Below, piece by piece: positions 3,268 to 26,220 of a stretch of DNA of 26,418 nucleotides. Within the stretch, counting starts at the first letter, position 1, and the number at the start of each line of letters is the position of its first letter. The position numbers and the translations under genes were made by a program. The stretch is from assembly GCA_964467075.1 (NCBI GenBank), contig CAYXPN010000017.1:5051-31468 (forward strand), read 5' to 3'. The notes beneath the pieces were generated by a model. That model had not been told where the DNA came from. It did no database searches and saw nothing but the letters and a program-made list of their open reading frames with translations. The DNA is from an uncultured Planctomycetaceae bacterium (GTDB taxonomy: Bacteria > Planctomycetota > Planctomycetia > Pirellulales > Thermoguttaceae).

Positions 3268-3435
3268 GCCTCGCGCTTACGACTCCGACGAACGGTAGCC
3301 ACGCTCGCCAGAGCGTGGGACGACACTTACGAACGCCCTGCAAGAAGCAGGTCGTCCCACCGTCTGGCTTTCGGCGGCTCCAACTGGAACTCTCCTTGTC
3401 AGACACACCCTCGCGCTTATGACTCCGACGAAAGG
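3268..3435. repeat. Composite palindromic (REP-like) element flanked by 27-bp imperfect direct repeats (3268-3294 and 3409-3435)
   Basis: cctcgcgcttacgactccgacgaacgg and cctcgcgcttatgactccgacgaaagg (2 mismatches) flank a 114-bp core. The core contains the hairpin ccacgctcgccagagcgtgg (3299-3318), a 9-bp stem tgggacgac/gtcgtccca, and block ccgtctggctttcggcggctcc. Both hairpin and block are reverse-complement matches to the copies at 9927-9995 and 11280-11365. Confidence 0.85.
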
Positions 3436-3931: not shown

Positions 3932-6409
3932 TCAACTTCCCGCCAGTTGGTCCAGCAACCGGCTCCACTCGTCGCGCGTGTAGTTGGTCGTTTTGCCAAA
4001 ATCGGCCTGGGCGTCCAGCCGCGCCAGCACCACCTTGGCCTGCTCCAGCGCCGTGCGCGCCTCGCGCGCCTGCCCCAGCCGGCGGTAGGCCCGGGCCATC
4101 TGCACGTAGGCTTCGAGCACCTCGGGCTGGCGCTGATAGCGGATGGTGGCCGCCCGGTAGGCCCGGATCGCACTTTGGTAGTCGCCCAACTCGAACTGCG
4201 CGGCCCCGCGCGCGAAATAGCAGTTGCGCAAGACAGCCTGCTGGAGGGCCGTGAGCTCGTGGGTCTGTTGCCGCTGTTCGAGGTCGTCCAGCAGTCGGGC
4301 GTAGGCGTCGGCGGCCTCGACGAGCCACTGGCGCACCTGCTGCTGCTCCGCGGTTTGAACGCCGGGTTGCGGGCCCAGCGCACGGCGCGCCGCCACCGCG
4401 TGCCGAAAGGAGCACTGGGCGGCCAGAAAGCGGGCTTCGGTGGCCTGGGGAACGTCGGGATAGCGCTCGACCGCTTCGCTGAGCCGCTGGGCCGCTTGTT
4501 CGTAGTGCCCCTGCACGTATTCCAGTTGGCCCAGGGCGAACAACGATTCGCGCCACTCGCGGCTGGCCGGAGTGAGCAGCTCGCCGATCAGGTTTTCGCG
4601 CAGCAGCGCCTCGGCCTGGTCCAACTCGCCGCGTTCGATATGCGCCCGGGCGGCCAGCAATCGGGCGCGATAGGTGGCCGCGTCGCGCGCGTGATACGTC
4701 AGGCAATCGTCAAAGGCCTGCAAGGCCTCGTCCACCTTGTCCAGGGCCAGCAGGGCTTCGCCCAGAGAGACCAGCGCCAGGGCATGGCGGTTGCGCGTCT
4801 GGTCGGCCAGATAGCTGCGCAAGACGGTCACGGCGTTGCGATAGTCCTGCCCGGCGAGAAACGCCTCAGCCGCCTGCCAAAGATGCTCTGAATAGCTGGG
4901 CGTGGTCACTTCCAGGCGCGCAAGATACATATGAAACTGGGCAGCACGGCGCAGGCGCTCGCGCGCCTCGCGGCGCAAGGCTTCGGCCTGGTGCGGCGGC
5001 GACTGCTCGGCCTGGGCCAGCAGCGACTCGGCCCACTGCCGGCACGCCTCGGCCGAAAGCTCCGCCGCACGGCTGCGCGCAAACAGCGGATGAAACACGC
5101 GCGCCAGTTGCAGCGCCACCTCGAAACGCTGCGTCTCAAGATAGTGCTCATACGTGGCCAGCATCTGCCGGCGCAACTCGTCCAGCGGCAGCCAGGGATT
5201 GCGATAAGCGGCCGGATCGGGAACCGCCTGGAGCAACGCGCGATAGACCGCCAGCGCCTCGGCGTCGCGCCCGGCGCGGCGGGCCAGCTCCGCCTGGTGA
5301 AACGCGGCGGCCAGACCTTCGGGCCACTGCGCATGCAGCTTGCGCACCCGCTCCAACTGGGCCCATGCCGCGCGCCGGTCGTTCATCTCCAGGAAACACA
5401 CGCCGATCAGGTACATCGCCTCTCGGGTGGCACGATTCTCCAGCGTGTCGCGACTCTGGGCCTGGCGCAACGCCTTGACCGCCTGCTGGTACAAGGCGCG
5501 CGCCCGCAGGCGCGCCTCGGCAGAAACCAGCGGATCGCGCGTCAGGGTGCGGGCTTGGGCCATCAACACCTGGGCGCGCACCACCAGGGTCTCGCCCCGG
5601 TGGGCGGACTGGGTCGACACCGCGTCGAGTTGCTCCCGGCACTCGTCAATCCGCTCCAGGCGCAACAGAATTCGGGCCCGCTGCAACAGGGCCTCGTCGC
5701 GCTGGGCGGTCGAAAGGTCGGGCTGGGCCAGCAACTGGGAGTTGTACTGGAGCGCCTCGTCCAGCTTTGGTTCGGCGTCGTCCGCACTGGCCGCGGCCAG
5801 CAGGTAGTAGGTCTGCGCCCGCTGCTCGGGACAGGCCTTGAGCGCCTCGCGCAGCACGACCCGACTGGGCGGCACGCGCTCGCCCAGATACAGACACTTG
5901 CCCAACAAGAACAGCCCCGCGCCTTCTCGCCCGGCCGGAAAGCCGCGGTCCCGGGCCTCTTCCAGATAGCGGGCGGCCAGCAGGTAGCGTGTCGAGCGCT
6001 CGGGTCCCCATGTCTGGTCGGCCTCGCGCGCAGCAACCACACCCAGCACATACGGCGGACCGCCCCATTGCTCCAGCGGCAAGGTGCCGGCCGATTGCAG
6101 GACGCGGGCCATGTCCGCGGCCTCGTCCAGCTCACCCCGGTCCAAGGCCGTCAAGACGTCGGCCAGCTCGGGCGGCGGCTGACGGTTGTAGCTGACCGCG
6201 ATCAGGTACCAGAGCACTCCCACCACGCTGAGCGAGACCAGACCCGCGCCGCCCACCAGCGCCGCGCGCACCGGATGGGCGCGCGCAAAGGCCCGAGCAG
6301 CCGCGGACAGACCCGACAGACGCTGGCCCATGCTCGGCTGCTCGCCGGCCTCGGCGGCCTCCGCGGCCTCGAGCGCCTCGAGGAATTCGGGGCTGAGTTG
6401 GTCCGGCAT
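3932..6409 (-). CDS. Membrane-anchored TPR-repeat protein (825 aa, single N-terminal TM helix), unknown function
   Basis: Long ORF. N-terminus has an acidic stretch then the hydrophobic helix VRAALVGGAGLVSLSVVGVLWYLIAV. The remainder is rich in A/L/R/E/Q helical repeats with TPR-like periodicity (AxxLY, LGxxYxxxGxYxxA motifs such as ALGQLEYVQGHYEQAAQRL and ELGDYQSAIRAYRAA). Confidence 0.75.
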   Translation of the reverse strand: MPDQLSPEFLEALEAAEAAEAGEQPSMGQRLSGLSAAARAFARAHPVRAALVGGAGLVSLSVVGVLWYLIAVSYNRQPPPELADVLTALDRGELDEAADMARVLQSAGTLPLEQWGGPPYVLGVVAAREADQTWGPERSTRYLLAARYLEEARDRGFPAGREGAGLFLLGKCLYLGERVPPSRVVLREALKACPEQRAQTYYLLAAASADDAEPKLDEALQYNSQLLAQPDLSTAQRDEALLQRARILLRLERIDECREQLDAVSTQSAHRGETLVVRAQVLMAQARTLTRDPLVSAEARLRARALYQQAVKALRQAQSRDTLENRATREAMYLIGVCFLEMNDRRAAWAQLERVRKLHAQWPEGLAAAFHQAELARRAGRDAEALAVYRALLQAVPDPAAYRNPWLPLDELRRQMLATYEHYLETQRFEVALQLARVFHPLFARSRAAELSAEACRQWAESLLAQAEQSPPHQAEALRREARERLRRAAQFHMYLARLEVTTPSYSEHLWQAAEAFLAGQDYRNAVTVLRSYLADQTRNRHALALVSLGEALLALDKVDEALQAFDDCLTYHARDAATYRARLLAARAHIERGELDQAEALLRENLIGELLTPASREWRESLFALGQLEYVQGHYEQAAQRLSEAVERYPDVPQATEARFLAAQCSFRHAVAARRALGPQPGVQTAEQQQVRQWLVEAADAYARLLDDLEQRQQTHELTALQQAVLRNCYFARGAAQFELGDYQSAIRAYRAATIRYQRQPEVLEAYVQMARAYRRLGQAREARTALEQAKVVLARLDAQADFGKTTNYTRDEWSRLLDQLAGS

Positions 6410-6596
6410 GGCGTGCCGTCAGAAAATTGAGGGAGGTGGAAAGGGAAAAGCCGACCGAACGCGGCTGCCCCGCGGGCGCGCATGGGGGAAACCCGGCACG
6501 CGGGGCCGTCTAATGCCGATCCGGCTCGCCGGCCGCGCGCACGCGCAAACCCGCACGTGCCCGTTGGGGCTGGGGATGTCGAGGAAAAGGTGCGGC

Positions 6597-6627
6597 TATC
6601 TAGCGGAAAGCGGGCAGACGTGTCAAT
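6597..6627 (-). promoter_or_regulatory. Candidate sigma-70-type promoter for the TPR operon (minus-strand reading TTGACA-17 nt-CTAGAT)
   Basis: The reverse complement of 6597-6627 reads ttgacacgtctgcccgctttccgctagat. That is a perfect -35 hexamer, a 17-nt spacer and a 4/6 -10. It sits ~180 nt upstream of the TPR start codon. Sequence-motif inference only. Confidence 0.3.
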
Positions 6628-6859
6628 GCACGTTTGGGAGGGATTTTCTGCTTGTCTTGCCCGCTTTGTCAGGGCGTGCGCGTGTTTCCGATACTCACCT
6701 GCTTGGCCGGCATGCCCTGTTTATCTAAAAGAAAAGGTGACAGGTACATATATGGGGGATTTTGCGAAGACTGGGAAACCTCGGAAGCACAACGAAGTGT
6801 CTATCGGCAGCCTGCTTTGCCCAAACTCGCCATTATATGCGCCTGTCACCTTGCTTTGC

Positions 6860-6945
6860 TTGGGAGGGCGAGGCTCCCGCCGAGCCGAAGAAGCAATCGA
6901 AAGTTACGGCAACGCGCGCGGCTCGGCGGGAGCCTCGCCCTCCCA
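6860..6945. terminator. Perfect 28-bp-stem inverted repeat (tgggagggcgaggctcccgccgagccg / cggctcggcgggagcctcgccctccca, ~29-nt loop) immediately 3' of the sulfatase gene. Likely a transcription terminator or insulator hairpin.
   Basis: Read directly. The arms are exact reverse complements. Located 17 nt downstream of the sulfatase stop (6962) on its strand. No clean U-tract follows, so an intrinsic-terminator call is tentative. Confidence 0.5.
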
Positions 6946-6961
6946 AACCGTGAAACCCTAT

Positions 6962-8770
6962 TTAGTTGCCCCAGGGCTCCACGTTGCAACGCTTGGCCCA
7001 GGCCTCGTATTCGCGCGACAGTTGCTCGACCAGCACAGGGAAGCGGGGCCCCAGGTCGTGCATCTCCGTGCGGTCCGCCTCCGTGTCGTAAAGCTCCCAG
7101 GGCCCGCGGTGCCGGGCCACCAGCTTCCATTTGCCGTCGCGCACCGCGCGGTTGCCCTCGTGTTCCCAACACAGCACCCCGCGCTGCAGAACGCGACCCT
7201 CGAAGGCGGGCACCAGGCTGCGCCCTTCGATCGGGGTGAGATTGAAGCCGCCGAACTGAGCAGGATAGGAAACCTTCGCAACCTCCAGGCAGGTGGGCAT
7301 GACGTCGATCACGTGGCCGAGCTGCTCGCTCCAGCGGTTGCCCGTTCGGATCACCGCGGGCCAGCGCACGATCATGGGCGTGGCGATGCCGCCCTCGTGG
7401 ACGTCGTGCTTGTAGAGCCGGAAGGGCGTGTTGCTGACATTGGCCCAGGCGATGCCGTAGCTCTGGTAGGTGTCTTCGCCGCCGGGGTCGAAACGCGGAT
7501 CGTTGCCCACTTGCACGGGCCGGCCGTCGTGGGTCTTTTCGGGGATGTGCAGACCGGTCCAGTTCGGAGCGATCTCTTCGGCACACCCGCCGTTGTCGGC
7601 CAGAAACATCACCAGCGTGTTCTGCTCGGCGCCGATCTGCCGGAGCTTCTCCAGCACGCGCCCGATGCCCTGGTCCATCAGGTCCACCTGCGCTGCATAG
7701 ACCTCCATGCGCCGCTGTTGCCAGGACTTGTAGGCGTTCAGCTCCCACTGGCGCACGCGCGGGTCGCGGGGCGTGAGTTCCCACTGGCGCGAGATGACGC
7801 CCAGACCGATCATCCGCTGGTAGCGCTCGTTGCGCAAGGCGTCCCAGCCCGCGGCATAGCGCCCCCGATAGCGCCGCACCACGCTCTCAGGCGCGTGCAG
7901 CGGCCAGTGGGGCGCGGTGTAGGCCACGTAGAGGAAAAACGGCTTGTTCGCCCGCGCGGCCTCTTCCAGATAGAGCACGGCGTGGTCGGTGATCGCATCG
8001 GTGTAGTAATAGTCGCCCGCTTCGGGGCGGCGGATGAAGTGGTTGTCGCGCGTGAGCGTGACCGGATCGAAATAGCTGCCCCCGCCGTGGATGGTGCCGT
8101 AGAACTTGTCGAATCCCCGCTGGAGCGGCCAGTTATACCTCGGGCCCTCCGGGCCGACGAATCGCGTCACGTGCCATTTGCCGCACATCATGGTCTGGTA
8201 GCCCGCGGCGTGGAGCAACTGGGCGATGGTCACACAGCGCTGGCTGAGGTTGCCGCGATAGCCGGGCCGCCGGTGGTCCGTCATCATGTGCCCTATGCCC
8301 GCCTGGTGCGGATACAGCCCGGTCAACAGGGCGGCGCGGGTCGGGCAGCAGCGGGCGCAGTTGTAGAACTGCCGGAAGCGCAGGCCGTCTTTGGCCAGGC
8401 GGTCGAGGTTGGGCGTGAGCATCTCGCCGCCGTAGCATCCCAGATCGGACCAGCCCAGGTCGTCGGCCAGGATGATCACGATGTTGGGCACACCATCGGA
8501 GAGCTGGGCACGGGCCTGCGCCGCCCCGCTCCAGGCCACAAGGGTCATTGCCGCCCAGAGGATCGCTGCCAGGCGGGCCGCAGCCCAAAGGGCACCTGGT
8601 TCGCCCGAGGCGCAGCCCCTGCTTTGTCGATGCTTGGCCTGTCGCACGGCATTGCCTCCTTCGTCTGCGAGACTCGCCCGCCTGCGAAGCTGGTCGGCCG
8701 AGCCCACGCGGCCGGCGCGAAGTCGGCCTGCGAAGCCCGGGGCTGGCCCGCGCCGCCTTCGATCACTCAC
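6962..8770 (-). CDS. Type I sulfatase (arylsulfatase family, formylglycine-dependent), secreted
   Basis: IVIILADDLGWSDLGCYGG...CARCCPTRAALLTGLYPHQAGIGHM carries the C-x-P-x-R FGly signature plus the conserved LTG and metal-binding DD motifs. A hydrophobic signal-like segment ALWAAARLAAILWAAMTLVAWSGAAQA is present. The true start may be downstream of 8770. Confidence 0.9.
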   Translation of the reverse strand: MSDRRRRGPAPGFAGRLRAGRVGSADQLRRRASLADEGGNAVRQAKHRQSRGCASGEPGALWAAARLAAILWAAMTLVAWSGAAQARAQLSDGVPNIVIILADDLGWSDLGCYGGEMLTPNLDRLAKDGLRFRQFYNCARCCPTRAALLTGLYPHQAGIGHMMTDHRRPGYRGNLSQRCVTIAQLLHAAGYQTMMCGKWHVTRFVGPEGPRYNWPLQRGFDKFYGTIHGGGSYFDPVTLTRDNHFIRRPEAGDYYYTDAITDHAVLYLEEAARANKPFFLYVAYTAPHWPLHAPESVVRRYRGRYAAGWDALRNERYQRMIGLGVISRQWELTPRDPRVRQWELNAYKSWQQRRMEVYAAQVDLMDQGIGRVLEKLRQIGAEQNTLVMFLADNGGCAEEIAPNWTGLHIPEKTHDGRPVQVGNDPRFDPGGEDTYQSYGIAWANVSNTPFRLYKHDVHEGGIATPMIVRWPAVIRTGNRWSEQLGHVIDVMPTCLEVAKVSYPAQFGGFNLTPIEGRSLVPAFEGRVLQRGVLCWEHEGNRAVRDGKWKLVARHRGPWELYDTEADRTEMHDLGPRFPVLVEQLSREYEAWAKRCNVEPWGN

Positions 8771-9110
8771 AGTATCCGCAGGCGCCCGTGCGGGGTCAAC
8801 TCGCCCCCGAAGCCGGCTTGGAGGATGGGGCGAGCGGAGGGTGGCACGCCCTCAGAAGGGCGTGACTGGACCACGCAGCACTCACCACGCCCATCGCTGC
8901 GCTGAAGGGCGTGCCACCCGGCCCGGGCCACGCGGCCGCTCGTTCGTGCGCTTTCGCCCTGTCGCGTGTGCGCGATGATGGTCCTCAGGAGGGCTGCGCT
9001 GCCTCGCGGCCGTGCGCGCGGCCGAGGTCATTTCGCCAGGAAATCCCGCTACACGCGAGCCGATCTTCGGGCTGTCCCCGCGGCAGGTCATCGCATAGGA
9101 TAGCAGGTGC

Positions 9111-9894: not shown

Positions 9895-10035
9895 CGCGCC
9901 GTCGCCAGACCGCGAATTGGTTCCACGCTCTGGCGAGCGTGGCTACCAGTAGCCGCCGAAAGCCAGACGGCGGACAAAACCGGTCTGTGCACATGGCAAT
10001 CCACGCTCTGGCGAGCGTGGCTACGATTCCAAGAG
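9895..10035. repeat. Cluster of REP-like palindromic repeats: two copies of ccacgctctggcgagcgtggctac (9927-9950, 9998-10021) interleaved with gtagccgccgaaagccagacggcggacaa-type hairpin blocks
   Basis: Direct reading. Same family as the 3268-3435 and 11280-11365 elements. Located in the gap between the convergent zinc-ribbon gene and the glycosyltransferase gene. Confidence 0.85.
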
Positions 10036-11279: not shown

Positions 11280-11375
11280 GGCTGTTCGTAGCCGCCGTCG
11301 CCAGACGGCGGACAAGCGATTCAGCCGATGGCCGGTCGCGTCCACGCTCTGGCGAGCGCGGCTACCGACCTGCCG
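11280..11375. repeat. REP-like composite element (gtagccgccgtcgccagacggcggacaa block + ccacgctctggcgagcgcggctac hairpin)
   Basis: Direct reading. One mismatch to the hairpin consensus. Immediately 3' of the DUF72 gene. Confidence 0.8.
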
Positions 11376-14982: not shown

Positions 14983-15063
14983 CAAGGTGGGATATTCGTG
15001 GTACGCTGGTTCGTCAGGCGTGGGCCAGTATTGGGGGGCGATGCAAAAAGGGGAGATCTTGTC

Positions 15064-16518
15064 ATGACGTTGAACGAGGAATCCTTGTGCGAAGAAAAAG
15101 AAGTACGGCTCTTCCCGTCACATCACATCCGTTCGGACAGAGAAGCCGAGCCCAGAGCCACAGCCGCATTCCTGGCTGTGGTCCGTGCTGTTTCGAAGTT
15201 CGGCAAGCGCATTGTGTCAATCGCGGGTGGGCCGGGAGGCAGGATTGGTTGTTATCCCGAGGTGCCTATCCAGGTTGGTGTGGGTCCCGATTCCCGTATT
15301 GAGAGGCCCGATGGCATCATCCGAGCCACCTGGGGCAAGAAGGATTGGGCCGCGCTGGTGGAAGTCAAGGTGGGAGAGAACCCACTTGACCACGACCAAG
15401 TCGAGCGATATCACAAGCTGGCGTACGAAACGGGTATCAATGCGCTGATTACCGTCAGCAATCAGGCGGCACTGCCGAACGGGCTGCCCCCCGGCATCAA
15501 GGTGAAGGCCTCGCACCTCAAGAAGGTCCCTGTGGCGCATCTCTCATGGGAGAGGCTTCTCAGCGAGGCACAAGTGTTGACGCGGCGCAAGAGCGTTGCA
15601 GATCGTGACCAGGAGTGGATTCTGGAAGAGTGGGTTCGCTATCTCGTCGATCCCGCCTCCCGGATCATCAAGCCTCCGGATCTGGGACCACACTGGCACA
15701 GAGTTGTTCAGTATGCGAGACAAGGAAATCTCGGCGCGTGCAAGAGCGAAATGCAAGACGTAGTGGAACGATGGGATGCTTTCTTGAGAAAGACCGCTCT
15801 CAGACTGCGGGCGAAGTTGGGCGCCGAGGTGAGGGTGGTCATGCCTCGCGCGGAGCGGACTGATCCTGCGGTGCGACTCAAGAACTTGCTGGGCGTTGCC
15901 CTTAACGATCAGCAGTTGTCGGGCACTTTCCGTGTTCCGCACGCTGCCGGCGACATGTCTGTAGTCGTACTGCTCCCGGCTAGATCCGTGCAGTACGTTC
16001 TCGATGTCAAGGCACCGACAGAAGGCAGGCCCAAGACGCAGCTCAAGTGGATCATCAAGCAGCTAGCGTCGGGAGAAGTGCCGGACGACCTTGTCGTTCA
16101 CGTAGATTGGGGGTATCGTGTATCATCTCAGGCACCTGTTGTAGAGGCCGAGCAACAGATCGAGGCGCTCTTGTGGGACAGCAACAAACAACCCATTCCT
16201 ACAAAATCCGAACCACGCTGTTTCTACCTCAGACGCACTACGGCTCTGGCCAAGGGTAAGGGACGCTCGACGGCAGGAGTATTAGAGGGTATCGCCCAGG
16301 GAATGGAGGACTTTTACAGACGCGTCGTAGAGAAGGTCAAACCCTACGTGCAAAAGGCCCCCCAAATGCCCCGGGAAGAGCGCGACCAACAGCCTCCCGA
16401 TGTGGTGTCACGTGAACAAGCCGAAGGCCAATCCGAATCGGCCACCGCTACGCCGTCGACCACGCCCATCCAAGAATCGGCAAAGCAGGGCACGCCGGTC
16501 GGTGATTCTGATTCGTGA
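15064..16518 (+). CDS. Hypothetical protein with N-terminal RecB/Cas4-like PD-(D/E)xK nuclease domain and an unknown ~350-aa C-terminal region ending in an acidic S/T-rich tail. Compositionally foreign (candidate orphan defence-type nuclease).
   Basis: ATG at 15064 preceded by aaaggggag at proper spacing. Motifs, numbered from this Met: E66 (YPEVP), D83 (RPDGII), E100-V-K102 (ALVEVKV), Q112-VER-Y116 (QxxxY). GC is ~56% versus ~68-72% for flanking genes. Many A/T-ending codons (gaa, aaa, gta, tca, aga, tat, caa). Confidence 0.7.
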   Translation: MTLNEESLCEEKEVRLFPSHHIRSDREAEPRATAAFLAVVRAVSKFGKRIVSIAGGPGGRIGCYPEVPIQVGVGPDSRIERPDGIIRATWGKKDWAALVEVKVGENPLDHDQVERYHKLAYETGINALITVSNQAALPNGLPPGIKVKASHLKKVPVAHLSWERLLSEAQVLTRRKSVADRDQEWILEEWVRYLVDPASRIIKPPDLGPHWHRVVQYARQGNLGACKSEMQDVVERWDAFLRKTALRLRAKLGAEVRVVMPRAERTDPAVRLKNLLGVALNDQQLSGTFRVPHAAGDMSVVVLLPARSVQYVLDVKAPTEGRPKTQLKWIIKQLASGEVPDDLVVHVDWGYRVSSQAPVVEAEQQIEALLWDSNKQPIPTKSEPRCFYLRRTTALAKGKGRSTAGVLEGIAQGMEDFYRRVVEKVKPYVQKAPQMPREERDQQPPDVVSREQAEGQSESATATPSTTPIQESAKQGTPVGDSDS

Positions 16519-16698: not shown

Positions 16699-18471
16699 GT
16701 GGAAAGCCCACGGATGCACAGCCCACTGTTCGCTCTAGCTGAGGCGCGAGATTTCTGGCAATGGACCCTGGAAATCCTGCTGCTGCTGGCAGCAGCCATG
16801 GTGCTCGGCGCCGTAGCCGAGCGCCTGCGCCAGAGTGCCATTGTGGGCTACCTGATCGCCGGCGCGGTCATCGGCCCGAACATGCTGGGCGTGGTCGCGC
16901 AGCAGCAGGACCTCTTCGCCATCGCCGAGCTGGGCGTGGCACTGCTGTTGTTTACCATCGGACTGGAGTTCGCCCCGCAGCGCCTCTGGGGCCTGGGACG
17001 CCTGGCCTTTCTGGCCGGCCTGCTCCAGGTGCCCGTGACCATGGCCCTGGCAACCGTGGTTTGCCGCCTGGCGGGCATGCCGCTGGCCGCGGCAACGGTC
17101 GTCGGCGCCATGGTTGCCATGTCCAGCACCGCGTGTGTGTTGCGAATCCTGGCTGACCGGGCCGAGATGGACAGCCCTCACGGGCGCATTTGTTTGGGGA
17201 TTCTCTTGGTGCAGGATGCCGCGGTGGTGCCGCTGCTGGTGGTGGTCACGGTGCTGTCTGCGGGAAAGGGCGGGCTGGGTCCTTGGTGGCAGCTCGGACT
17301 GGTGACCGTCTCGGCATTCGTGCTGGCCGGGGTGTTCTACGTGCTCTTCGCGCGCGTGGCACCCCGGTTGATGCAGCTTCGCACGTGGCTGCGCAACCGC
17401 GACCTGCCGATCCTGCTGGCCATCGTGATGGCGCTGGGTTCCACGTGGGCCGCCCACCAGGCCGGCTTGAGCCCGGCGCTGGGCGCCTTCCTGGCCGGGG
17501 CCCTGCTGGCGGCCTCGCCCTTTGCCGTGCAAATCCGGGCCGACGTGGAGCCGGTCAAGACCATCCTGGTCACGCTCTTCTTTGCGTCCATGGGCATGTT
17601 CGGGGATTTCGGTTGGCTGCTTGAGCACGCGGGCCTCGTGTTCACAGTGGTCGCAGCCGTGATTCTCGGCAAGGCCGCGGTCGTGGCCGCGATCACGCGG
17701 CTTATCGGCGCCTACTTCCCGTTCGCCGTGGCCTCCGGCTTGTGCGTGGCACAGATCGGCGAGTTCTCCTTCGTGCTGGCCACCGTCGCCCGCGGCGAAA
17801 ATGGAAACGGAGCATTGCTCTCGGATACCGCGTTCCGCGCGATCGTCTCGGCCACCTTGATCAGCCTGCTCGTGACCCCGTATCTGATCGCCGCAGGGCC
17901 GCGGTTGGGCTATCGGCTGCACCGGGCGTTCCACGAGGCGCTGCGCCGCTTGCGCCGACGCGCCACGCGCGCAGGAGGCCAGCCGGATAAGCCATTGGCG
18001 CCCGACGCGCAACCGGAAGGCGACGAGGCCCAGGGCGGCCCGGAAGACCTGATCCTGGTGGTCGGCTTCGGCCCGGCCGGCCAGCGCGCAGCCGAACAGC
18101 TCGCCGCCACTTGCGCCGTGCAGGTGGCCGTGTTGGATTTGAACATCGAGAACGTGCGGCTGGCCGAGCGCTGCGGGCTGGCTGCGTATGCGGGCGACGC
18201 CACCCAGGTCGAAGTGCTCCAGCACGCGGGGCTCCATCGCGCCGCGGCGGTGATCGTCACCGTGCCCACGCCCCGGGCTTCGCGCCGGCTGATAGCACTG
18301 ATCCGCCATCATGCGCCCGCGGCCTTGATCGTGGCCCGGGCCCGGTATCACATCCACCGCTGGCAGCTCGTCCATGCGGGGGCCCACGTGGTGGTGGACG
18401 AGGAGGACGAAGTGGGCCACCATCTGGCCGCGGCGCTGGTGGGACTCTTGGAGGGCAAAGAGGGCGATTGA
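16699..18471 (+). CDS. Kef-type monovalent cation:proton antiporter (CPA2) with C-terminal TrkA-N/RCK domain
   Basis: Twelve or more hydrophobic helices (GYLIAGAVIGPNMLGVV..., LFTIGLEF...). C-terminal Rossmann motif LILVVGFGPAGQRAAEQL. The start may be the ATG at 16714. Confidence 0.9.
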   Translation: MESPRMHSPLFALAEARDFWQWTLEILLLLAAAMVLGAVAERLRQSAIVGYLIAGAVIGPNMLGVVAQQQDLFAIAELGVALLLFTIGLEFAPQRLWGLGRLAFLAGLLQVPVTMALATVVCRLAGMPLAAATVVGAMVAMSSTACVLRILADRAEMDSPHGRICLGILLVQDAAVVPLLVVVTVLSAGKGGLGPWWQLGLVTVSAFVLAGVFYVLFARVAPRLMQLRTWLRNRDLPILLAIVMALGSTWAAHQAGLSPALGAFLAGALLAASPFAVQIRADVEPVKTILVTLFFASMGMFGDFGWLLEHAGLVFTVVAAVILGKAAVVAAITRLIGAYFPFAVASGLCVAQIGEFSFVLATVARGENGNGALLSDTAFRAIVSATLISLLVTPYLIAAGPRLGYRLHRAFHEALRRLRRRATRAGGQPDKPLAPDAQPEGDEAQGGPEDLILVVGFGPAGQRAAEQLAATCAVQVAVLDLNIENVRLAERCGLAAYAGDATQVEVLQHAGLHRAAAVIVTVPTPRASRRLIALIRHHAPAALIVARARYHIHRWQLVHAGAHVVVDEEDEVGHHLAAALVGLLEGKEGD

Positions 18472-18590
18472 GCAGCGCCCAGTCGCCCCTACCGACGCCG
18501 CGCTTTCGATCCGTGTGGCCAAAACAGCCACGCCCTTCTCAGCGCGTGCCACCCGGCCGCGCTCGAAAAGAGTCCGCTCCGGCTCGACGA

Positions 18591-20240
18591 CTACTCGCTC
18601 CGGCTCTCGGTGCGATCGGGCTTGGGCGAGTCGCCTTGCGCGGCATCCGATCGGCCGGCCGGCTGCTGGTCCTGGGTGGTGGCGAATCGGGCGAGCACCT
18701 CGGGGATTTCCACCCCGCCCACGTCGCGCAGCACCTGCATCATGGGCGGCAGGGTGCGGGCCATGTTGTGCAGCCAGTTGGCCGTGGCCGACGTGCCGTT
18801 GCTGGAGCCGGAATCCCACACCACGACCTTGTCGAAGCGGATGTTGGAGATGGCCTCGGCCGAAGCCTGGGCCAACTGGTCGAAGTGTTCGAGCATGAGC
18901 ATCTGGAAGGCCTGCTCGGCGCCGCCGCAGGCCTCGATGATCGCGTGCAGGCCTTCGCCTTTTTTGGCCAGGATTTCGTACTGGCCGCGGGCCTCGGCTT
19001 CGAGTCGGGCGAAGATGGCCTGGGCTTCGCCTTCGGCCTCGATGCGGCGCTTTTCCTTTTCGGCTTCGGCCTCGACGATGATCCGCGCCTTCTGTGCCTT
19101 GGCCGGCGCTTCGAGTTCGGCGCGCCGCTCGGCTTCGATGCGCTCGGCCTCGGCCAGGGCGGCCTTGGCCAGGGCGTGGTGCTGGGCCTGGAGCACCGCG
19201 GCTTCGGCCACGCGTTTGCGCGTCTCGCCCAGCTCGTAGGCCTCGGCCTCTTTGACTTTCAGAGCCGCCAGCGAAGCGGCGATCGTGGCCCGCGCCTCGT
19301 TCTCGCCTTCGACGGCCTGGGCGTTGGCTTCGGCCACGCGCACACGTTTTCCGCGTTCGGCGTCGGCCACTTGCGAGTCGCGTTCGAACTCCGCGCGCTG
19401 CTCGCCGACGACTTGTTCCTTCGACAAGTCGGCCACGCGGACCGCGGTTTCGCGTTCGGCCTCGCGCGTGCCGATGGTCTGGTCCCGGCGGGCGTTGGCC
19501 ACCTGGATGGCCTTCTCGCGTTCGGCGTCGGCCACGCGGATTTCGCCCATCTTCTCATTGTCGGCCACGTCCCCGCGAGCCTGCTGGATCGCCTCGCTGG
19601 CGGCTTTCTGGCCGATGGCTTCGATGTAGCCCGACTCGTCGGTAATGTCGGTGATATTGACATTGATCAGCACCAGTCCGATCTTGCGCAATTCGGGTTC
19701 CAGGGAGAGCTGGATGTTTTCGAGGAATTTTTCCCGGTCGCGGTTGATGTCCTCGATCTGCATCGAGGCGATCACCTGGCGCAACTGGCCGAAGATGATG
19801 TCTTCGGCCTGGCGCTTGATGTCCTGCGTAGCCAGGCCCAGCAGGCGGATGGCCGCGTTCTGCATCAGCTCGGGTGTGGTGCCGATGGCCACGGTGAACA
19901 CGCTGGGCACGTTCACGCGGATGTTCTCGATCGAGAGCGCACCGCGCAGGGGAATTTCGATCTGCATCGGCTCCAGGTTCAGCCAGCCGTGATCCTGGAT
20001 CAGCGGCCATACAAAGCGCGCCCCGCCGTGCACGCAGGTTGCGGCCTGCCCGCCGCGCGACTTCCCGTAGATCACCAGCACGCGGTTGCTAGGGCAGCGC
20101 TTGTAGCGCTTCACAAGCAGACCGAGCACCAGCGAGAACACGATCACTGCCGCAAACAGCAGCAGCACCAGCCAGAAATAGAAGTTCGCATTGTCGGCGA
20201 GGTCTTGCAGCAAGTCGGCCGCCAGCAAGAGACTACTCAT
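18591..20240 (-). CDS. Flotillin-family (SPFH/band-7) protein, YqiK/FloA-like, with long Ala/Glu/Arg-rich coiled-coil
   Basis: Start at MSSLLLAADLLQDL (ATG at 20238-20240, aaggagg Shine-Dalgarno). N-terminal TM then SPFH domain (RVLVIYGKS...IENIRVNVPSVFTVAIG...). Long EA-rich region (AEAERIEAERRAELEAPAKAQKARIIVEAEAEKEKRRIEAEGEAQ) is typical of flotillins. Confidence 0.9.
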   Translation of the reverse strand: MSSLLLAADLLQDLADNANFYFWLVLLLFAAVIVFSLVLGLLVKRYKRCPSNRVLVIYGKSRGGQAATCVHGGARFVWPLIQDHGWLNLEPMQIEIPLRGALSIENIRVNVPSVFTVAIGTTPELMQNAAIRLLGLATQDIKRQAEDIIFGQLRQVIASMQIEDINRDREKFLENIQLSLEPELRKIGLVLINVNITDITDESGYIEAIGQKAASEAIQQARGDVADNEKMGEIRVADAEREKAIQVANARRDQTIGTREAERETAVRVADLSKEQVVGEQRAEFERDSQVADAERGKRVRVAEANAQAVEGENEARATIAASLAALKVKEAEAYELGETRKRVAEAAVLQAQHHALAKAALAEAERIEAERRAELEAPAKAQKARIIVEAEAEKEKRRIEAEGEAQAIFARLEAEARGQYEILAKKGEGLHAIIEACGGAEQAFQMLMLEHFDQLAQASAEAISNIRFDKVVVWDSGSSNGTSATANWLHNMARTLPPMMQVLRDVGGVEIPEVLARFATTQDQQPAGRSDAAQGDSPKPDRTESRSE

Positions 20241-20868
20241 AGCCGATCTCCTCCTTTTCGGGGATTGGCTCGACTTCGACGGTGTCGGTGCTGACCACAC
20301 GTGTTACCACAACCGTAGCACCCGAACCCAGGCGTTGCCCGGCGGTTACCGCCAAGTATTCCATGGTCCGGTTTTGCAGGTTGATTTGGATTTTCCCGGC
20401 GCCGGAATTGTGCGCGGGGATTGGAACGTACACAGTGGCAGGCCGGCCGACGGCGCGTTCGATGCGTGCCGTACCTTCCGATTGCAGCTTGTACATGGCC
20501 TGCATCAACCAGAACACGCCGTACATGGCGGCCAGCCCGGCGCCCACGGCAACCGCCACCGCGAGCGCAACACCGGCCCCGGCCGCCTCCGCGGCCAGGC
20601 CCGCCAGTCCGAAGAACGTTAGCGCGGCGACCAGCGTGCGAAAAGAGAGCACGCCGAGGATCCAATCGGCTTCCGGGTGTCCCAGGTCGCCCGCATCGTG
20701 AGTGGGCAAATCCACGTCCAATGCGTCGGCCCCGTCGAGCCCGCCCGACACATCGCCGCCGAAGTCGGCATCGGCAACCTCGCCGCCGAACCCGACGAAC
20801 ATCAATATGAACTGGATCACAAGGATCGTACCGCCTACCACAGCGCAGAGCAGGAAAACGGTCGTCAT
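20233..20868 (-). CDS. NfeD/YqiJ-like membrane protein (flotillin partner)
   Basis: Start at MTTVFLLCAVVGGTILVIQFILMFVGF (ATG at 20866-20868). Two hydrophobic segments plus a C-terminal beta-rich soluble part (GKIQINLQNRTMEYLAVTAGQRLGSGATVVVTRVV). The stop overlaps the flotillin ATG by 8 nt (tATGAGTAG). The longer upstream ORF extension has no coding character. Confidence 0.7.
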   Translation of the reverse strand: MTTVFLLCAVVGGTILVIQFILMFVGFGGEVADADFGGDVSGGLDGADALDVDLPTHDAGDLGHPEADWILGVLSFRTLVAALTFFGLAGLAAEAAGAGVALAVAVAVGAGLAAMYGVFWLMQAMYKLQSEGTARIERAVGRPATVYVPIPAHNSGAGKIQINLQNRTMEYLAVTAGQRLGSGATVVVTRVVSTDTVEVEPIPEKEEIGYE

Positions 20869-21603
20869 CGCTGAAACCTTTCCCGAGTCGATTTGCACGC
20901 ATGCAAACTCCCCGCTGATTATTCGCTCGAACCCAGCCGGGCTTGGATTCCGATCGGTCGGGAAGCGCCGGCCGTGGGTGCCGCTCGGCGGGGGATTCGT
21001 TTGCCGTGTCGAAACTGGACTCCTGCAAAATGCCGATCTCGGTTTCGCCACGTCCCACCGGAAGGGGCCCTGCGCCTTGCGGTGTAGGGAAGTTGCGCAA
21101 GTGAGGAAAAGCGTTTCCGCGCTGGCTCCCCCCTCATTCCTGGCCCTCTGCGAGAGGGAAAAGTCGACCACGCTGCGAGAGCGCGGTTGAAAGCTTCGGC
21201 AAGGATTCTCGGCCCACGCCAACCCACAGGGGTGCTGACGCTGCCTCTCGAAAGGCAAGCAAGAGAGCCCCGGACGGATATCACGATAGTCGCATCCCCC
21301 CGTTTGTCAACAGCGCCATTCAGGGGGAAAGCCGCGCCGGATCGAGCACTACGTGCTCGACCGGGCAGCCCGTAGGCTGCGTGCTTGCAGCACTGCTGTA
21401 AACGTCTTCGTGTGGCGAAAATGCCAAGGAAAACGGTGATTCGCGGGGTATGTGTGTATCGCGTCACCCGAACCCCAACGGGGTTCGAGACAAAAGCCCA
21501 GGGTCAGCTTCCGCGGCCGCCGGGCCGCGAAGCGCCACCCTGGGTCATCGAGGGCGCCAATTCCCGCACCTACCCCGAAGGGGTTGGGTAACCGTTCACG
21601 GGC

Positions 21604-21666
21604 CGTCATTGTCGCCTTTCGCTCCGCGAAAGTGGCGCTGCTTTCGCGGAGCGAAAGGCGACTATC
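21604..21666. other. Perfect 22-bp-stem hairpin (gtcgcctttcgctccgcgaaag-tggcgctg-ctttcgcggagcgaaaggcgac)
   Basis: Arms at 21611-21632 and 21641-21662 are exact reverse complements with an 8-nt loop. It sits in the long region with no convincing coding gene, 8 nt upstream of an AT-rich 49-codon ORF. Confidence 0.8.
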
Positions 21667-22259
21667 CACGCGAAATGGCCCGAAAACGGGCAGCGGCCCG
21701 TGAACAGTTAGGACTTGTAAAGGAATTGTTTGCCGAATTCGATGCGCAGCCCCGGGAAGTAATACTCTTACAAGTTCTTACTCGCGGCCTGAAACCCGGG
21801 GTGGCGCGGCCTGGCGGCCGCTGACCCCGGGCTTTGGAATCCAACGCCTTCGGCGTTGACTCGGTCGGCGCAGCGCTCACCACACAGCGGGCAGGAGCCT
21901 TGGCCGAACACTCCCGAAAGATGTTTACAGCACTGGTACAAGCACGCACCCTACGGAAGGCAAAGGGGACAGGCCCATCCGCGCTGCGCGAAAACGCGCT
22001 GGTGCCCCGCGCGCCGCCGCATCCGCGCGCAAGCCGCCAGCCCCGAAGATCCGGACATATATCGCGCCCCTTCGGGGCTGGGACGCTGGGCGTGCCGGAG
22101 CGGGTCGGCGGGTGATGCTGACCACGTCGCCTTTTGCGGGGCTCGGGGCACTTGGTAGGCCGACGTTTCCCGTGGGCTTTCGCAGACGGCCAAATAGGGT
22201 TTCACGCAAGGCCATTTACCATCCTCGGCCCCTGCGGAGCCGGAAGGCCCGCGCATGTC

Positions 22260-22285
22260 CACCTCAGACGGCTGAAGTGCTACGT
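22260..22285. repeat. 26-bp palindromic motif c[ac]c[ct]tcagacggctgaagtg[ca]tacgt, copy 1 (copy 2 at 26195-26220, same orientation)
   Basis: Copy 1 is cacctcagacggctgaagtgctacgt. Copy 2 is cacttcagacggctgaagtgatacgt. The two bracket the tRNA-Arg and the beta-propeller cytochrome gene. Confidence 0.8.
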
Positions 22286-22294
22286 AGTTGTGAT

Positions 22295-22420
22295 GGTGTC
22301 CGGGAATCGTCCTCGGATTGCGCTGGAAGTGTGCCACTGCTTGCCCGCCGGGCAAGCAGTGCTCGGGGCGGCGAGGCACTACTTCTGGCGAAGCAGTGGC
22401 ACACTGAATTCCCGGACACC
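22295..22420. other. Nested imperfect palindrome (~125 nt): outer stem ggtgtccgggaat/attcccggacacc, inner 15-bp stem agtgtgccactgctt/aagcagtggcacact, small central hairpin cttgccc-gcc-gggcaag
   Basis: Read directly from the sequence. Candidate structured RNA or protein-binding cruciform ~350 nt upstream of the tRNA. Confidence 0.7.
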
Positions 22421-22767
22421 CGCACGGAGCTCGAAACCCACCCGCGGAGCGCTGCCACCTTCAGCCTGCCGATCCACAGCTTCTCCAAGGCGCGGCCCTC
22501 TGCAAGGCGCAGCCCGCTCGTGCCCGGCCGCGGCAGCGCATTGCGACCACGGCCGGGCAGGGTAGAATAGACGTAGCACGCGGGCCAAACGGAGCGACCC
22601 GGCGGGCGATAGCCTTCGGCCGCGGGACGGCGCCGTGTTTCGACCGCCACACGCGGTTCTTTCGGCTGCCACACGCGGTTCGCACCGAAAACCGTCGGCC
22701 GACAAACCCGGGCCCGTCGCCTTCGGCTCCGCAAGCGGCAGCACCGCCCGCGGGCCAGACCGTGCCA

Positions 22768-22840
22768 GCGCCTGTAGCTCAGGGGATAGAGCGACGGTTT
22801 CCTAAACCGTAGGTCGCAGGTTCGAATCCTGCCAGGCGTA
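22768..22840 (+). tRNA. tRNA-Arg (anticodon CCT)
   Basis: Manual fold of the 73-nt sequence: acceptor GCGCCTG/CAGGCGT (one G-U), D-arm GCTC-AGGGGATA-GAGC, anticodon stem ACGGT/ACCGT with loop TTCCTAA (anticodon CCT), T-arm GCAGG-TTCGAAT-CCTGC, discriminator A. CCA is not encoded. Confidence 0.85.
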
Positions 22841-23465
22841 CTTCCTGCTTCCTTCCTGCTTTGCGTCGCCGGGAAGTCGGCCGTCTATTCCGGCATCGCC
22901 ATCGATATCCCCGTGGGCAAAGGCTGGGGCACGCAAGCCTCACCCAGTGATCCGGAGGACGTTTATCGCGCCGTCCGCCGCGCACGAGATGCGGGCGCGT
23001 GGGGAGGGGAATCGTCGTCTGTCGGGAGCACGAAGAGATGCACGAGGCCAGCCTGCGAGCCATCGGCCGGGCGATTCGGGAGGGCTGGAGGGGCTGAACC
23101 AAGGGCTTGCCCGATACTCGTGGCGATTCCGCCCGGCGCCAAACCAGGCAGTCCGAGCCGATGACCGAGGGCCTTGTGCCCACTTCACTCGGCTGAACTG
23201 TTACGCAGATCGAAGGTCGATCGCCGCGGCGCTGATCGCCCCCAGCGGCCGCCGGCACGCGCCGTCAACCCCGATGGCGAGCAAGGCGGGAAAGGACGTC
23301 GATTGCGAGAAGCCGACGGCATTGACAATTGTCGAAGCCCAAACACAATTCATTGCAGACGATGAAGCCAACCACATGCGACGCTGCGCCATGCGCGAGC
23401 CGCGGCGGGAGTGAGTCGCGCGTGAAAGAGGCGCCGACGTATTCATACCAGTTACGCAGGAGGCG

Positions 23466-26194: not shown

Positions 26195-26220
26195 CACTTC
26201 AGACGGCTGAAGTGATACGT
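26195..26220. repeat. Copy 2 of the 26-bp cttcagacggctgaag palindromic motif
   Basis: cacttcagacggctgaagtgatacgt, a direct repeat of 22260-22285 (23/26 identical). Confidence 0.8.

Follow-up and report, generated by a model that had tools for sequence, protein, structure and literature searches.

The locus and its gene-free spacer

The DNA analysed here (the window) is a stretch of 26,418 nucleotides from an uncultured Planctomycetaceae bacterium (contig CAYXPN010000017.1, positions 5,051 to 31,468), with a G+C content of 61-73% across most of its length. As listed in Table 1, it has a gene-free gap from 20869 to 23465, of which a tRNA-Arg(CCT) gene is the sole interruption, the gap continuing beyond the tRNA. 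The 1.9 kb in front of the tRNA (20869-22767, the region) contains a nest of palindromes at 21372-21954. Five layers make up this nest: a repetitive extragenic palindromic (REP)-like palindrome, a MITE (a miniature inverted-repeat transposable element) derived from an insertion sequence (IS) of the IS4 family, a pair of composite modules, a 126-nt palindromic element and a core hairpin. Independent copies of each occur elsewhere. The region is probably a gene-free spacer in which palindromic repeat and mobile DNA elements have accumulated and whose hairpins are neither RNA genes nor gene remnants.

A sequence-only reading of the region had found no convincing protein gene, and we likewise detected no coding signal. 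The frame plot of G+C at third codon positions is flat from 20869 to about 23470, and the flanking genes give spreads of 0.3-0.56. The test for a decayed gene compared the ten longest open reading frames (ORFs) of the region with Pfam and PHROGs only, with no protein search against large sequence databases; it returned nothing credible, the best noise being Na_trans_cytopl (E = 0.01) and DUF6788 (E = 0.23).

The best named relatives of the flotillin and of the HzsA-like protein are in metagenome-assembled genomes (MAGs) of Pirellulales and Thermoguttaceae, which marks the host as a planctomycete, probably one of the Pirellulales. Genome stretches and contigs from other organisms used for comparison are labelled L001 to L144. 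In the nearest relative of the flotillin (87% aa; L001, L002), homology to the window ends at 20928, and the gene there has an asparaginase upstream and other neighbours than in the window. Upstream of the closest relative of the HzsA-like gene (72%; L004) there are sulfatases. Between 20700 and 23600 we found three sigma-70-like promoter matches, where 0.4 were expected from shuffles, and no intrinsic-terminator-like site, where 2.5 were expected. If these promoters are real, the palindromes sit in an untranscribed spacer between two divergent promoters, and the site at 21283-21310 is putatively its left limit. The segment 20869-21369 looks like ordinary promoter and leader DNA.

Table 1. Features of the gap and of its surroundings (window positions; z, DNA-fold z-score)
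Feature	Position	Strand	Remarks
Kef-type transporter gene	16699-18471	+	
Flotillin gene	18591-20300	-	
Gene for small NfeD-like membrane protein	20236-20868	-	
Promoter-like site TTGACA-16-TATCGT	21283-21310	-	consensus match only; faces NfeD-like/flotillin operon
GTAG-type REP-like palindrome, left half	21372-21390	+	GTAGGCTGCGTGCTTGCAG; split by MITE
MITE-like non-autonomous derivative of IS4-family IS, 545 nt	21391-21935	+	ends CACTGCTGTAAACGTC ... GATGTTTACAGCACTG
Composite REP-like module, left copy	21469-21545	+	z = -6.7
Extended palindromic element, 126 nt	21587-21712		GGTAACCGTTCACGGGCCG ... core ... CGGCCCGTGAACAGTTA; z = -11.2
Core hairpin, 58 nt	21608-21665		ATT-GTCGCCTTTCGCTCCGCGAAAG-(8 nt)-CTTTCGCGGAGCGAAAGGCGAC-TAT; palindromic repeat family
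Composite REP-like module, right copy	21794-21857	-	mirror order; z = -4.1
GTAG-type REP-like palindrome, right half	21936-21954	+	GTACAAGCACGCACCCTAC
Hairpin, 12-bp perfect stem	22037-22081		21-nt loop; z = -3.1
GTAG-type REP	22260-22283	-	GTAG-CACTTCAG-CCGT-CTGAGGTG (minus strand); GTAG-tagged
Nested palindrome, 136 nt	22290-22425		alternative inner pairings; z = -7.1
Imperfect 13-bp hairpin	22521-22559		z = -2.4; overlaps -35 of promoter-like site 22541-22568
Promoter-like site TTGCGA-16-TAGAAT	22541-22568	+	consensus match only; ~200 nt 5' of tRNA-Arg, faces tRNA
Tandem 22-nt repeat, two copies	22638-22681	+	TTTCGRCYGCCACACGCGGTTC; ~90-130 nt 5' of tRNA-Arg, 3' of promoter-like site 22541-22568
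tRNA-Arg(CCT)	22768-22841	+	Rfam tRNA model, 71.8 bits
Promoter-like site	23322-23349	+	faces HzsA-like gene
Gene for HzsA-related/PD40/cytochrome c protein, 837 aa	23466-25979	+	

Nested palindromic elements

The region had been described as hairpin-dense over its whole 1.9 kb. The excess of hairpins is real, but it is uneven and lies mainly in one block of about 580 nt and one palindrome of 136 nt. When whole segments were folded and compared with dinucleotide shuffles, 21350-21970 gave z = -12.2, as compared with -2.7 for 21960-22767 and -1.5 for both 20869-21369 and 22842-23465. In a 200-nt sliding fold across the entire window (mean z -0.47, sd 1.54), only 21401-21800 lay far out within the region (z -5 to -8.6), with moderate values at 22301-22500 (-3.6) and 22001-22200 (-3.2). 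The hairpins named in the sequence-only reading, including the stems in 21460-21600, are all present. The hairpin at 21611-21662 has a perfect stem of 22 bp, which extends to 25 bp at 96% (21608-21632/21641-21665; z = -10.9). That reported at 22038-22081 does have its perfect 12-bp stem (22037-22048/22070-22081), but its start had been placed one base off. An unrelated site of the window, 6701-7000, is as extreme in the sliding fold (z -5.6 to -6.0). Located at the start of a long ORF (6482-8905) and locally low in GC (0.60), this site includes an inverted repeat with arms of 28 perfectly matched bp (6860-6887/6919-6946) and another repeat, of 31 nt (6734-6764/6822-6852).

Between 21372 and 21954 the inverted repeats are nested, with arms at 21370-21408/21918-21956, 21471-21545/21794-21857 and 21589-21605/21694-21710 around the central hairpin. 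The outermost layer is a REP-like palindrome of the GTAG type, GTAGGGTGC-GTGCTTGCAC-GCACCCTAC, which supplies the outer 19 nt on each side. Its two halves are part of inverted termini of 37-39 nt which are 87% complementary. The sequence of the left half adjoins IS or MITE ends in L130-L138 and L144, and the uninterrupted palindrome, GTAGGGTGCGTGC(TT/AA)GCACGCAC(CCTAC), stands alone at L095:3917, L132:832, L134:266 and L138:1569. These stand-alone copies have the GTAG tag and the short stem-loop of GTAG-type REPs (GTAG-G-GTGCGTGC-TT-GCACGCAC). A gene for a REP-associated tyrosine transposase (RAYT, a Y1 transposase) belonging to GTAG-tagged REPs was not found in the window.

The MITE that splits this palindrome consists of about 158 nt of backbone and 387 nt of nested inserts. 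Ends of the same type (CACTGCTGTAAAC.. and ..GTTTACAGCAGTG) border a 465-aa ORF of the DDE_Tnp_1/IS4 family in 1.54-kb copies in L133, L136, L138 and L144, and in the window IS-type ends identical in type to those of the autonomous copies lie at 21391 and 21923. The 465-aa transposase matches Pfam DDE_Tnp_1 at 3e-14 and NCBIfam transpos_IS4_1 at 3e-29; under the latter model the L133 copy scores 102 bits, below the cutoff of 115, and the L130 copy passes with 132.7 bits. Its relatives number 2409 at E<=1e-20 and are almost all on contigs of 1.5-1.9 kb, as expected for a multi-copy IS; one of them is named as coming from a Thermoguttaceae MAG. The terminus pattern TGCGTGCTTGNANCANTGCTGTAAAC has matches in nine metagenome contigs, frequently at contig ends, and the outer edge of the conserved block is sharp. 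Other metagenome samples contain several copies each, L130, L131 and L137 being from one sample. L126 and L130, once considered as one contig, are distinct contigs.

Short MITEs of about 185 nt (about 223 nt with the flanking palindrome halves) are found at L131:1731-1956 and L132:589-811, and their subterminal sequences match the left end (type A) and the right end (type B) of the window element. No transposase was found inside the 545-nt MITE, whose internal ORFs are without a Pfam or PHROGs match. Like other IS4-family MITEs, of which both short (~185 nt) and long versions exist, it shares its ends with the autonomous 1.54-kb copies and has no transposase of its own; unlike them, it is swollen by other repeats and has no intact target duplication.

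Copies of the IS4-family element together with the palindrome are at L131:1731-1956, L132:589-854, L138:12-1591 and L144:2840-4440. In all four, a target duplication of 9-10 bp lies inside the REP-like palindrome (GTGCTTGCAC in L131, L132 and L138; TGCAAGCAC in L144). Duplications of this length are typical of the IS4 family. Because of these junctions, the true ends of the IS are CACTGCTGTAAACATC.../...GATGTTTACAGCAGTG, and the whole 37-nt inverted terminus was rejected as an IS terminal repeat, since its outer 19 nt are the target REP. This element with its DDE transposase prefers a palindromic target, and four or five junctions suggest that the core of the GTAG-type palindrome GTAGGGTGCGTGCTTGCACGCACCCTAC is its specific site of insertion. 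A second copy of the palindrome is often present 20-45 nt from the insertion site. IS1397 and ISKpn1 are REP-targeting insertion sequences of the IS3 family. Like these, the IS4-family element enters a fixed position in a REP-like palindrome and duplicates its core GTGCTTGCAC, as seen in the four independent copies; it differs from them in having an IS4-family DDE transposase and in the phylum of its host.

The next layer is the inverted pair of composite REP-like modules. The left copy has a small hairpin (CGAACCCC-AAC-GGGGTTCG), a spacer of about 10 nt and then a larger hairpin (CCCAGGGT...ACCCTGGG), and the right copy has CCCGGGGT...ACCCCGGG, a spacer and then CAACGCC-TTC-GGCGTTG. After inversion of the right copy the two are 70.7% similar. 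The right module is 78% identical over 65 nt to L100:215-276, and homologues are present in L100, L121 (two copies), L122 and L139. In these four loci GTAG, ATAG or ACAG stands in front of the large hairpin. The module is thus found in other Pirellulaceae, and in other genomes it also occurs singly. Between the two modules lies the 126-nt palindromic element. The same outer arms, with an asymmetric 28-nt insert, are found in L127 (77% over 124 nt), and part of the element is found in L075 (86% over 79 nt). A BLAST comparison of the region with about 1 Mb of planctomycete loci showed nothing recurrent apart from the MITE ends, the module at 21794-21858 and the stretch 21587-21712.

Nothing from 21955 to 22767 recurred in this comparison. 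In the nested palindrome at 22290-22425 the arms are 22290-22307/22408-22425, 22328-22342/22391-22405 and 22335-22347/22349-22361, and CACTGCTT is able to pair with either of two AAGCAGTG. It adjoins the GTAG-type REP at 22260-22283 through a CTAC-GTAG junction. Taken alone, this REP does not fold significantly (z = -0.3). It has two sisters in the window (22260-22285, 23181-23206 and 26195-26220, all intergenic) with the sequence CACYTCAGACGGCTGAAGTG(A/C)TACGT, which on the minus strand reads as an 8-bp stem-loop tagged GTAG, GTAT or GTAA; no copies of this family were found in the other loci or in viral contigs.

A canonical GTAG REP family, GTAG-CCACGCTC-GCCA-GAGCGTGG, is also present in the window at 3295-3318 (+), 9923-9946 (-), 10001-10024 (-) and 11341-11365, together with a variant at 11288-11311 (+), GTAG-CCGCCGTC-GCCA-GACGGCGG, which has the same loop and compensatory stem changes. 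This family implies a REP/RAYT-type system in the host genome. A 30-nt inverted pair at 8839-8868 and 18525-18554 (GGGTGGCACGCCCTCAGAAGGGCGTGACTG, 90% complementary), each copy with its own small hairpin, is probably another REP-like family; the former copy lies within the last ~70 nt of the long ORF 6482-8905 and the latter about 55 nt 3' of the Kef-type gene. A perfect 55-nt direct repeat with a spacing of 86 nt (1-55 and 87-141) is at the start of the window. The ORF at 14998-16518 (506 aa), which is lower in G+C (0.58 vs ~0.68) and has no Pfam match, may be horizontally acquired.

REPs and REPINs (REP doublets forming hairpins) of the GTAG-tagged superfamily are short G+C-rich stem-loops, dispersed and mostly intergenic. 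They are found singly, in tandem groups or in clusters, and often as inverted doublets, which can fold into a longer hairpin (Di Nocera et al. 2013, PMC3733652; Bertels & Rainey 2011, PMC3116915). Three window elements resemble them in having a 5' GTAG, a stem of 7-8 bp and a loop of 2-4 nt, namely the 21372/21954 palindrome, the REP at 22260-22283 and GTAGCCACGCTCGCCAGAGCGTGG at 3295, 9946 and 10024. The CCCAGGGT module is likewise preceded by GTAG in L100, L121 and other loci.

The core hairpin in Planctomycetota

The hairpin at the centre of the nest belongs to a family found throughout the phylum. In a collection of species-representative genomes, the exact 22-mer arm GTCGCCTTTCGCTCCGCGAAAG occurred in more than 120 genome stretches among the matches listed, all labelled Planctomycetota; a hand count of contig accession prefixes puts these matches in about 75 assemblies at the species level. 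Among the matches listed, carriers are Pirellulaceae, Planctomycetaceae, Thermoguttaceae, Gemmataceae, Isosphaeraceae, Fuerstiella and Schlesneria, cultured Roseiconus, Rubripirellula and Roseimaritima, and some MAGs labelled Kuenenia. Allowing four mismatches, we counted 257 units in 120 loci. Ninety-five unit pairs have the convergent polarity of the window copy and two are divergent, and loops are mostly of 6-8 nt, within a range of 3 to 130 nt. The partner arms, which were not selected by the query, are 81-100% conserved per position. Conservation ends 3 nt beyond the stem (A, T/G, T/A), past which the flanking sequences are unrelated. Positions -3 to 0 at the foot are A (84%), T/G/A, T/A and G, that is, ATAG, ATTG or AGTG and not GTAG; GTAG was found 3' of a half-unit (GAAAGTAGCG). 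The exact arm is also present in five IMG/VR contigs classed as viral (L125-L129), of which L127 has the 126-nt element of the window.

Variants include half-units (ATAGTCGCCTTTCGCTCCGCGAAAGTAGCG), a short form, GTCGCCTTTCGC-TCC-GCGAAAGGCGAC, which makes up six of the counted pairs (e.g. L096, L104, L110), partial tandem copies and arrays of 33-35 nt. The arrays are direct tandem repeats of the half-unit with a period of 33-35 nt, and the partial copies lie head to tail with a period of 20-24 nt, breaking after ...CTCCGC (L049:6437-6525, L026:1545-1601 and 5070-5164, L081:3508-3562, L005:5748-5790, L044:5172-5253). This break hints at a specific cleavage or slippage point. Longer versions of the hairpin with shared flanks occur at several loci within single genomes (L016, L024, L100; L019, L050), which points to replicative spread. 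A palindromic element of about 105-115 nt with the ends CTAAGRATCG.../...CGATYCTTAG surrounds the hairpin in L016, L024, L100, L010, L032, L019, L050 and L064; in L024 it is bordered on each side by TTTAG, possibly a target duplication of the IS5-like YTAR type.

The core hairpin is predominantly extragenic, 12 of 162 elements lying deep inside an ORF of at least 200 aa, and many copies are 0-20 nt past a stop codon. By crude heuristic ORF calls, convergent, tandem and divergent gaps hold 14, 30 and 12 copies, as compared with about 12, 30 and 14 expected from gap length. When all ORFs of at least 100 aa in 125 loci were compared, no recurrent protein family was found beside the hairpin and no RAYT was adjacent to it, though a single-copy RAYT may lie farther away; the largest clusters of neighbouring proteins were kinases, sulfatases, sigma factors and similar. 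Stem mismatches relative to the strand of the flanking gene were G.U in 13 cases and A.C in 17, a lack of bias that gives no sign of selection at the RNA level. The family is conserved by sequence and not by covariation, and no Rfam 15 model matches it.

Like REPs and REPINs, the core hairpin is repeated, mostly extragenic and arranged in inverted doublets of one polarity. It differs from GTAG REPs in its stem of 22-25 bp and in having no linked RAYT gene, and apparently in its tag, which reads A-(T/G)-(A/T)-G in place of GTAG. REP families are usually species- or genus-specific, whereas the arm of the core hairpin is identical across the phylum. The GTAG-20 and GTAG-21 REPs of Rhodopirellula baltica (PMC3733652) were considered as the same element and rejected, as they differ from it. 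The Rhodopirellula-1 motif, a repeated hairpin from Planctomycetes (Weinberg et al. 2010, PMC2864571), was rejected likewise; it has the sequence AACAAACGGAUGAAC...GUUAUCCUUGACGUU and, in our reading, looks like an integron attC site. Literature searched for the core-hairpin sequence and for planctomycete REPs or MITEs gave no description of it; like the absence of an Rfam model, this does not establish that the hairpin is undescribed.

DNA uptake sequences of Neisseriaceae and Pasteurellaceae are 9-12 nt long, present in thousands of copies and often arranged as inverted intergenic pairs that form hairpins. The core hairpin is similar to these in being a sequence-conserved motif common to a large clade and in its intergenic inverted pairs. 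It differs in the length of its arm (25 nt), and there is no evidence of natural competence here.

Origin of the nest

The sequence-only reading had offered three explanations for the region: structured RNA, a decayed integrated element and a REP-element nursery. The last is the one that agrees with our results, as at least five nested layers of palindromic repeat or mobile elements with copies elsewhere occupy 21372-21954 and a further GTAG-type REP is present at 22260-22283. We propose that the spacer separates two divergent units, the minus-strand NfeD-like/flotillin operon and the plus-strand tRNA-Arg(CCT). There a GTAG-type REP-like palindrome would have received an IS4-family element in its palindromic core, and that element would survive as the 545-nt MITE. 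The middle of the MITE would have come to hold the inverted pair of composite modules and, between these, the 126-nt element with the 58-nt hairpin of the phylum-wide family as its core, the layers probably arising by successive insertions. Palindromes may draw further palindromic elements if extruded hairpin or cruciform DNA is a preferred target; alternatively, a promoter-free spacer may merely be tolerant of insertions. A RAYT whose gene lies in another part of the genome may mobilise the small REP-like hairpins in trans. If the host is affected at all, for instance by a block to read-through from one divergent unit into the other, this would be a secondary consequence.

Several observations weigh against this account. 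Much of each arm of the 583-nt structure can be aligned with the other arm (74% column identity), which an inverted duplication would give as well. The target duplication of the window MITE is not intact: GTGCTTGCAG and GTACAAGCAC agree in just 6 of their 10 positions; this copy is therefore old or rearranged, and a simple insertion is not proven for it. Neither a RAYT nor another mobilising enzyme was identified for the small hairpins. Outside the nest, no copies were found of the hairpin at 22037-22081 (in ~1 Mb of loci or viral contigs), of the palindrome at 22290-22425 (in the loci searched, its 22328 stem being absent from the viral contigs scanned) or of the hairpin at 22521-22559 (in the sequence searched). 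Copy counts in the host cover the 26-kb window only, and the gene-context figures depend on the heuristic ORF calls mentioned above. Finally, near-invariance across orders, as seen in the core hairpin, is atypical for selfish REPs.

This last point bears on another reading, in which the core hairpin serves as a functional cis-element, perhaps together with the whole cluster. It could be a sequence-specific binding site, or a hairpin, that is recognised by a protein conserved across Planctomycetota. We consider this possible though rather unlikely. It would account for the identity of the arm at 22 of 22 nt in about 75 species of Pirellulales, Planctomycetales, Gemmataceae, Isosphaeraceae and Thermoguttaceae (among the matches listed), for the conservation of the partner arms, for the strict polarity of 95 pairs against two and for the many copies just after stop codons. 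Horizontal spread of a mobile element could equally give the identity of the arm, however, and the distribution among gap types follows gap length, which does not fit a dedicated terminator. Nor do the missing G.U over A.C bias, loops of 3-130 nt, the partial and tandem copies and the single copy in the 26-kb window favour such a function. That purifying selection, acting via a conserved planctomycetal reader protein, holds the 58-nt hairpin (arm ATWGTCGCCTTTCGCTCCGCGAAAG) near-invariant as a functional element of the phylum is correspondingly a tentative suggestion. Such a reader could be a vertically inherited, domesticated HUH enzyme of the RAYT type, a receptor for DNA uptake, or a factor acting in the nucleoid or in termination. 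In the window the element might act as a bidirectional barrier between the divergent units, and a function of this kind is compatible with mobility. Less probable still is an origin of the 583-nt palindrome mainly by inverted duplication, with the central hairpin as the seed of template switching or of snap-back synthesis and with the mirrored modules as two diverged copies of one arm. The arms do align end to end, in patches of 65-94% identity, the modules are in mirror order, and the long form of the core hairpin resembles an inverted duplication of the short-form apex GTCGCCTTTCGC-TCC-GCGAAAGGCGAC. On the other hand, the left and right subterminal regions match different ends of the MITE family (A and B) and not each other, and the composite module is single in other genomes. 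The same asymmetric insert is found in the 126-nt element of L127, so this element existed as a unit elsewhere.

The very negative fold z-scores and the promoter-like sites would also be seen if the region encoded structured non-coding RNA, either a single species or several, for instance a small RNA or a 6S-like RNA with a long hairpin, and structured RNA had been suggested from the sequence. It is now very improbable. The Rfam 15 scan returned tRNA-Arg alone at gathering thresholds and nothing else credible at E<=10, the next-best match reaching 21.6 bits against a cutoff of 65.7. The hairpins are perfect DNA palindromes which fold equally well on both strands, and the core hairpin belongs to a family that is conserved by sequence and not by covariation, with no strand bias. 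Moreover, the predicted promoters point away from the nest, no intrinsic-terminator-like site was found where 2.5 were expected, and conservation of the region does not extend to the closest relative. Least probable of all is the remnant of a tRNA-targeted integrated element with a decayed integrase, although the region adjoins tRNA-Arg and its synteny with the relatives is broken. The window has no repeat of the tRNA 3' end beyond 11 nt in length, and thus no attL/attR-like repeat; the ten longest ORFs of the region include no integrase-like or phage protein by Pfam or PHROGs, and BLAST of the whole region against phage and plasmid collections gave no nucleotide match. Integrases normally use the 3' end of a tRNA, but the region lies 5' of it, and its G+C of 0.61-0.68 does not depart clearly from the rest of the window.

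If the region is an accumulation of palindromic elements, as we think probable, a 1.9-kb "structured non-coding" segment that could be mistaken for an RNA gene is repeat DNA, which annotators should mask. The core hairpin itself disrupts assemblies and gives rise to spurious ORFs, with ...FRGAKGD... as the translation of its arm. The nest is a clear case of palindromic elements lying several layers deep, one of them an IS4-family element apparently specific for the core of a REP-like palindrome, and it bears on how REP clusters grow. Should the core hairpin prove to be functional, such palindromes would act as preferred landing pads for each other and so build nested structures. Since REP families are normally restricted to a species or genus, the conservation of the core hairpin over the whole phylum suggests that it is read by a conserved protein or else has often spread horizontally among Planctomycetota.

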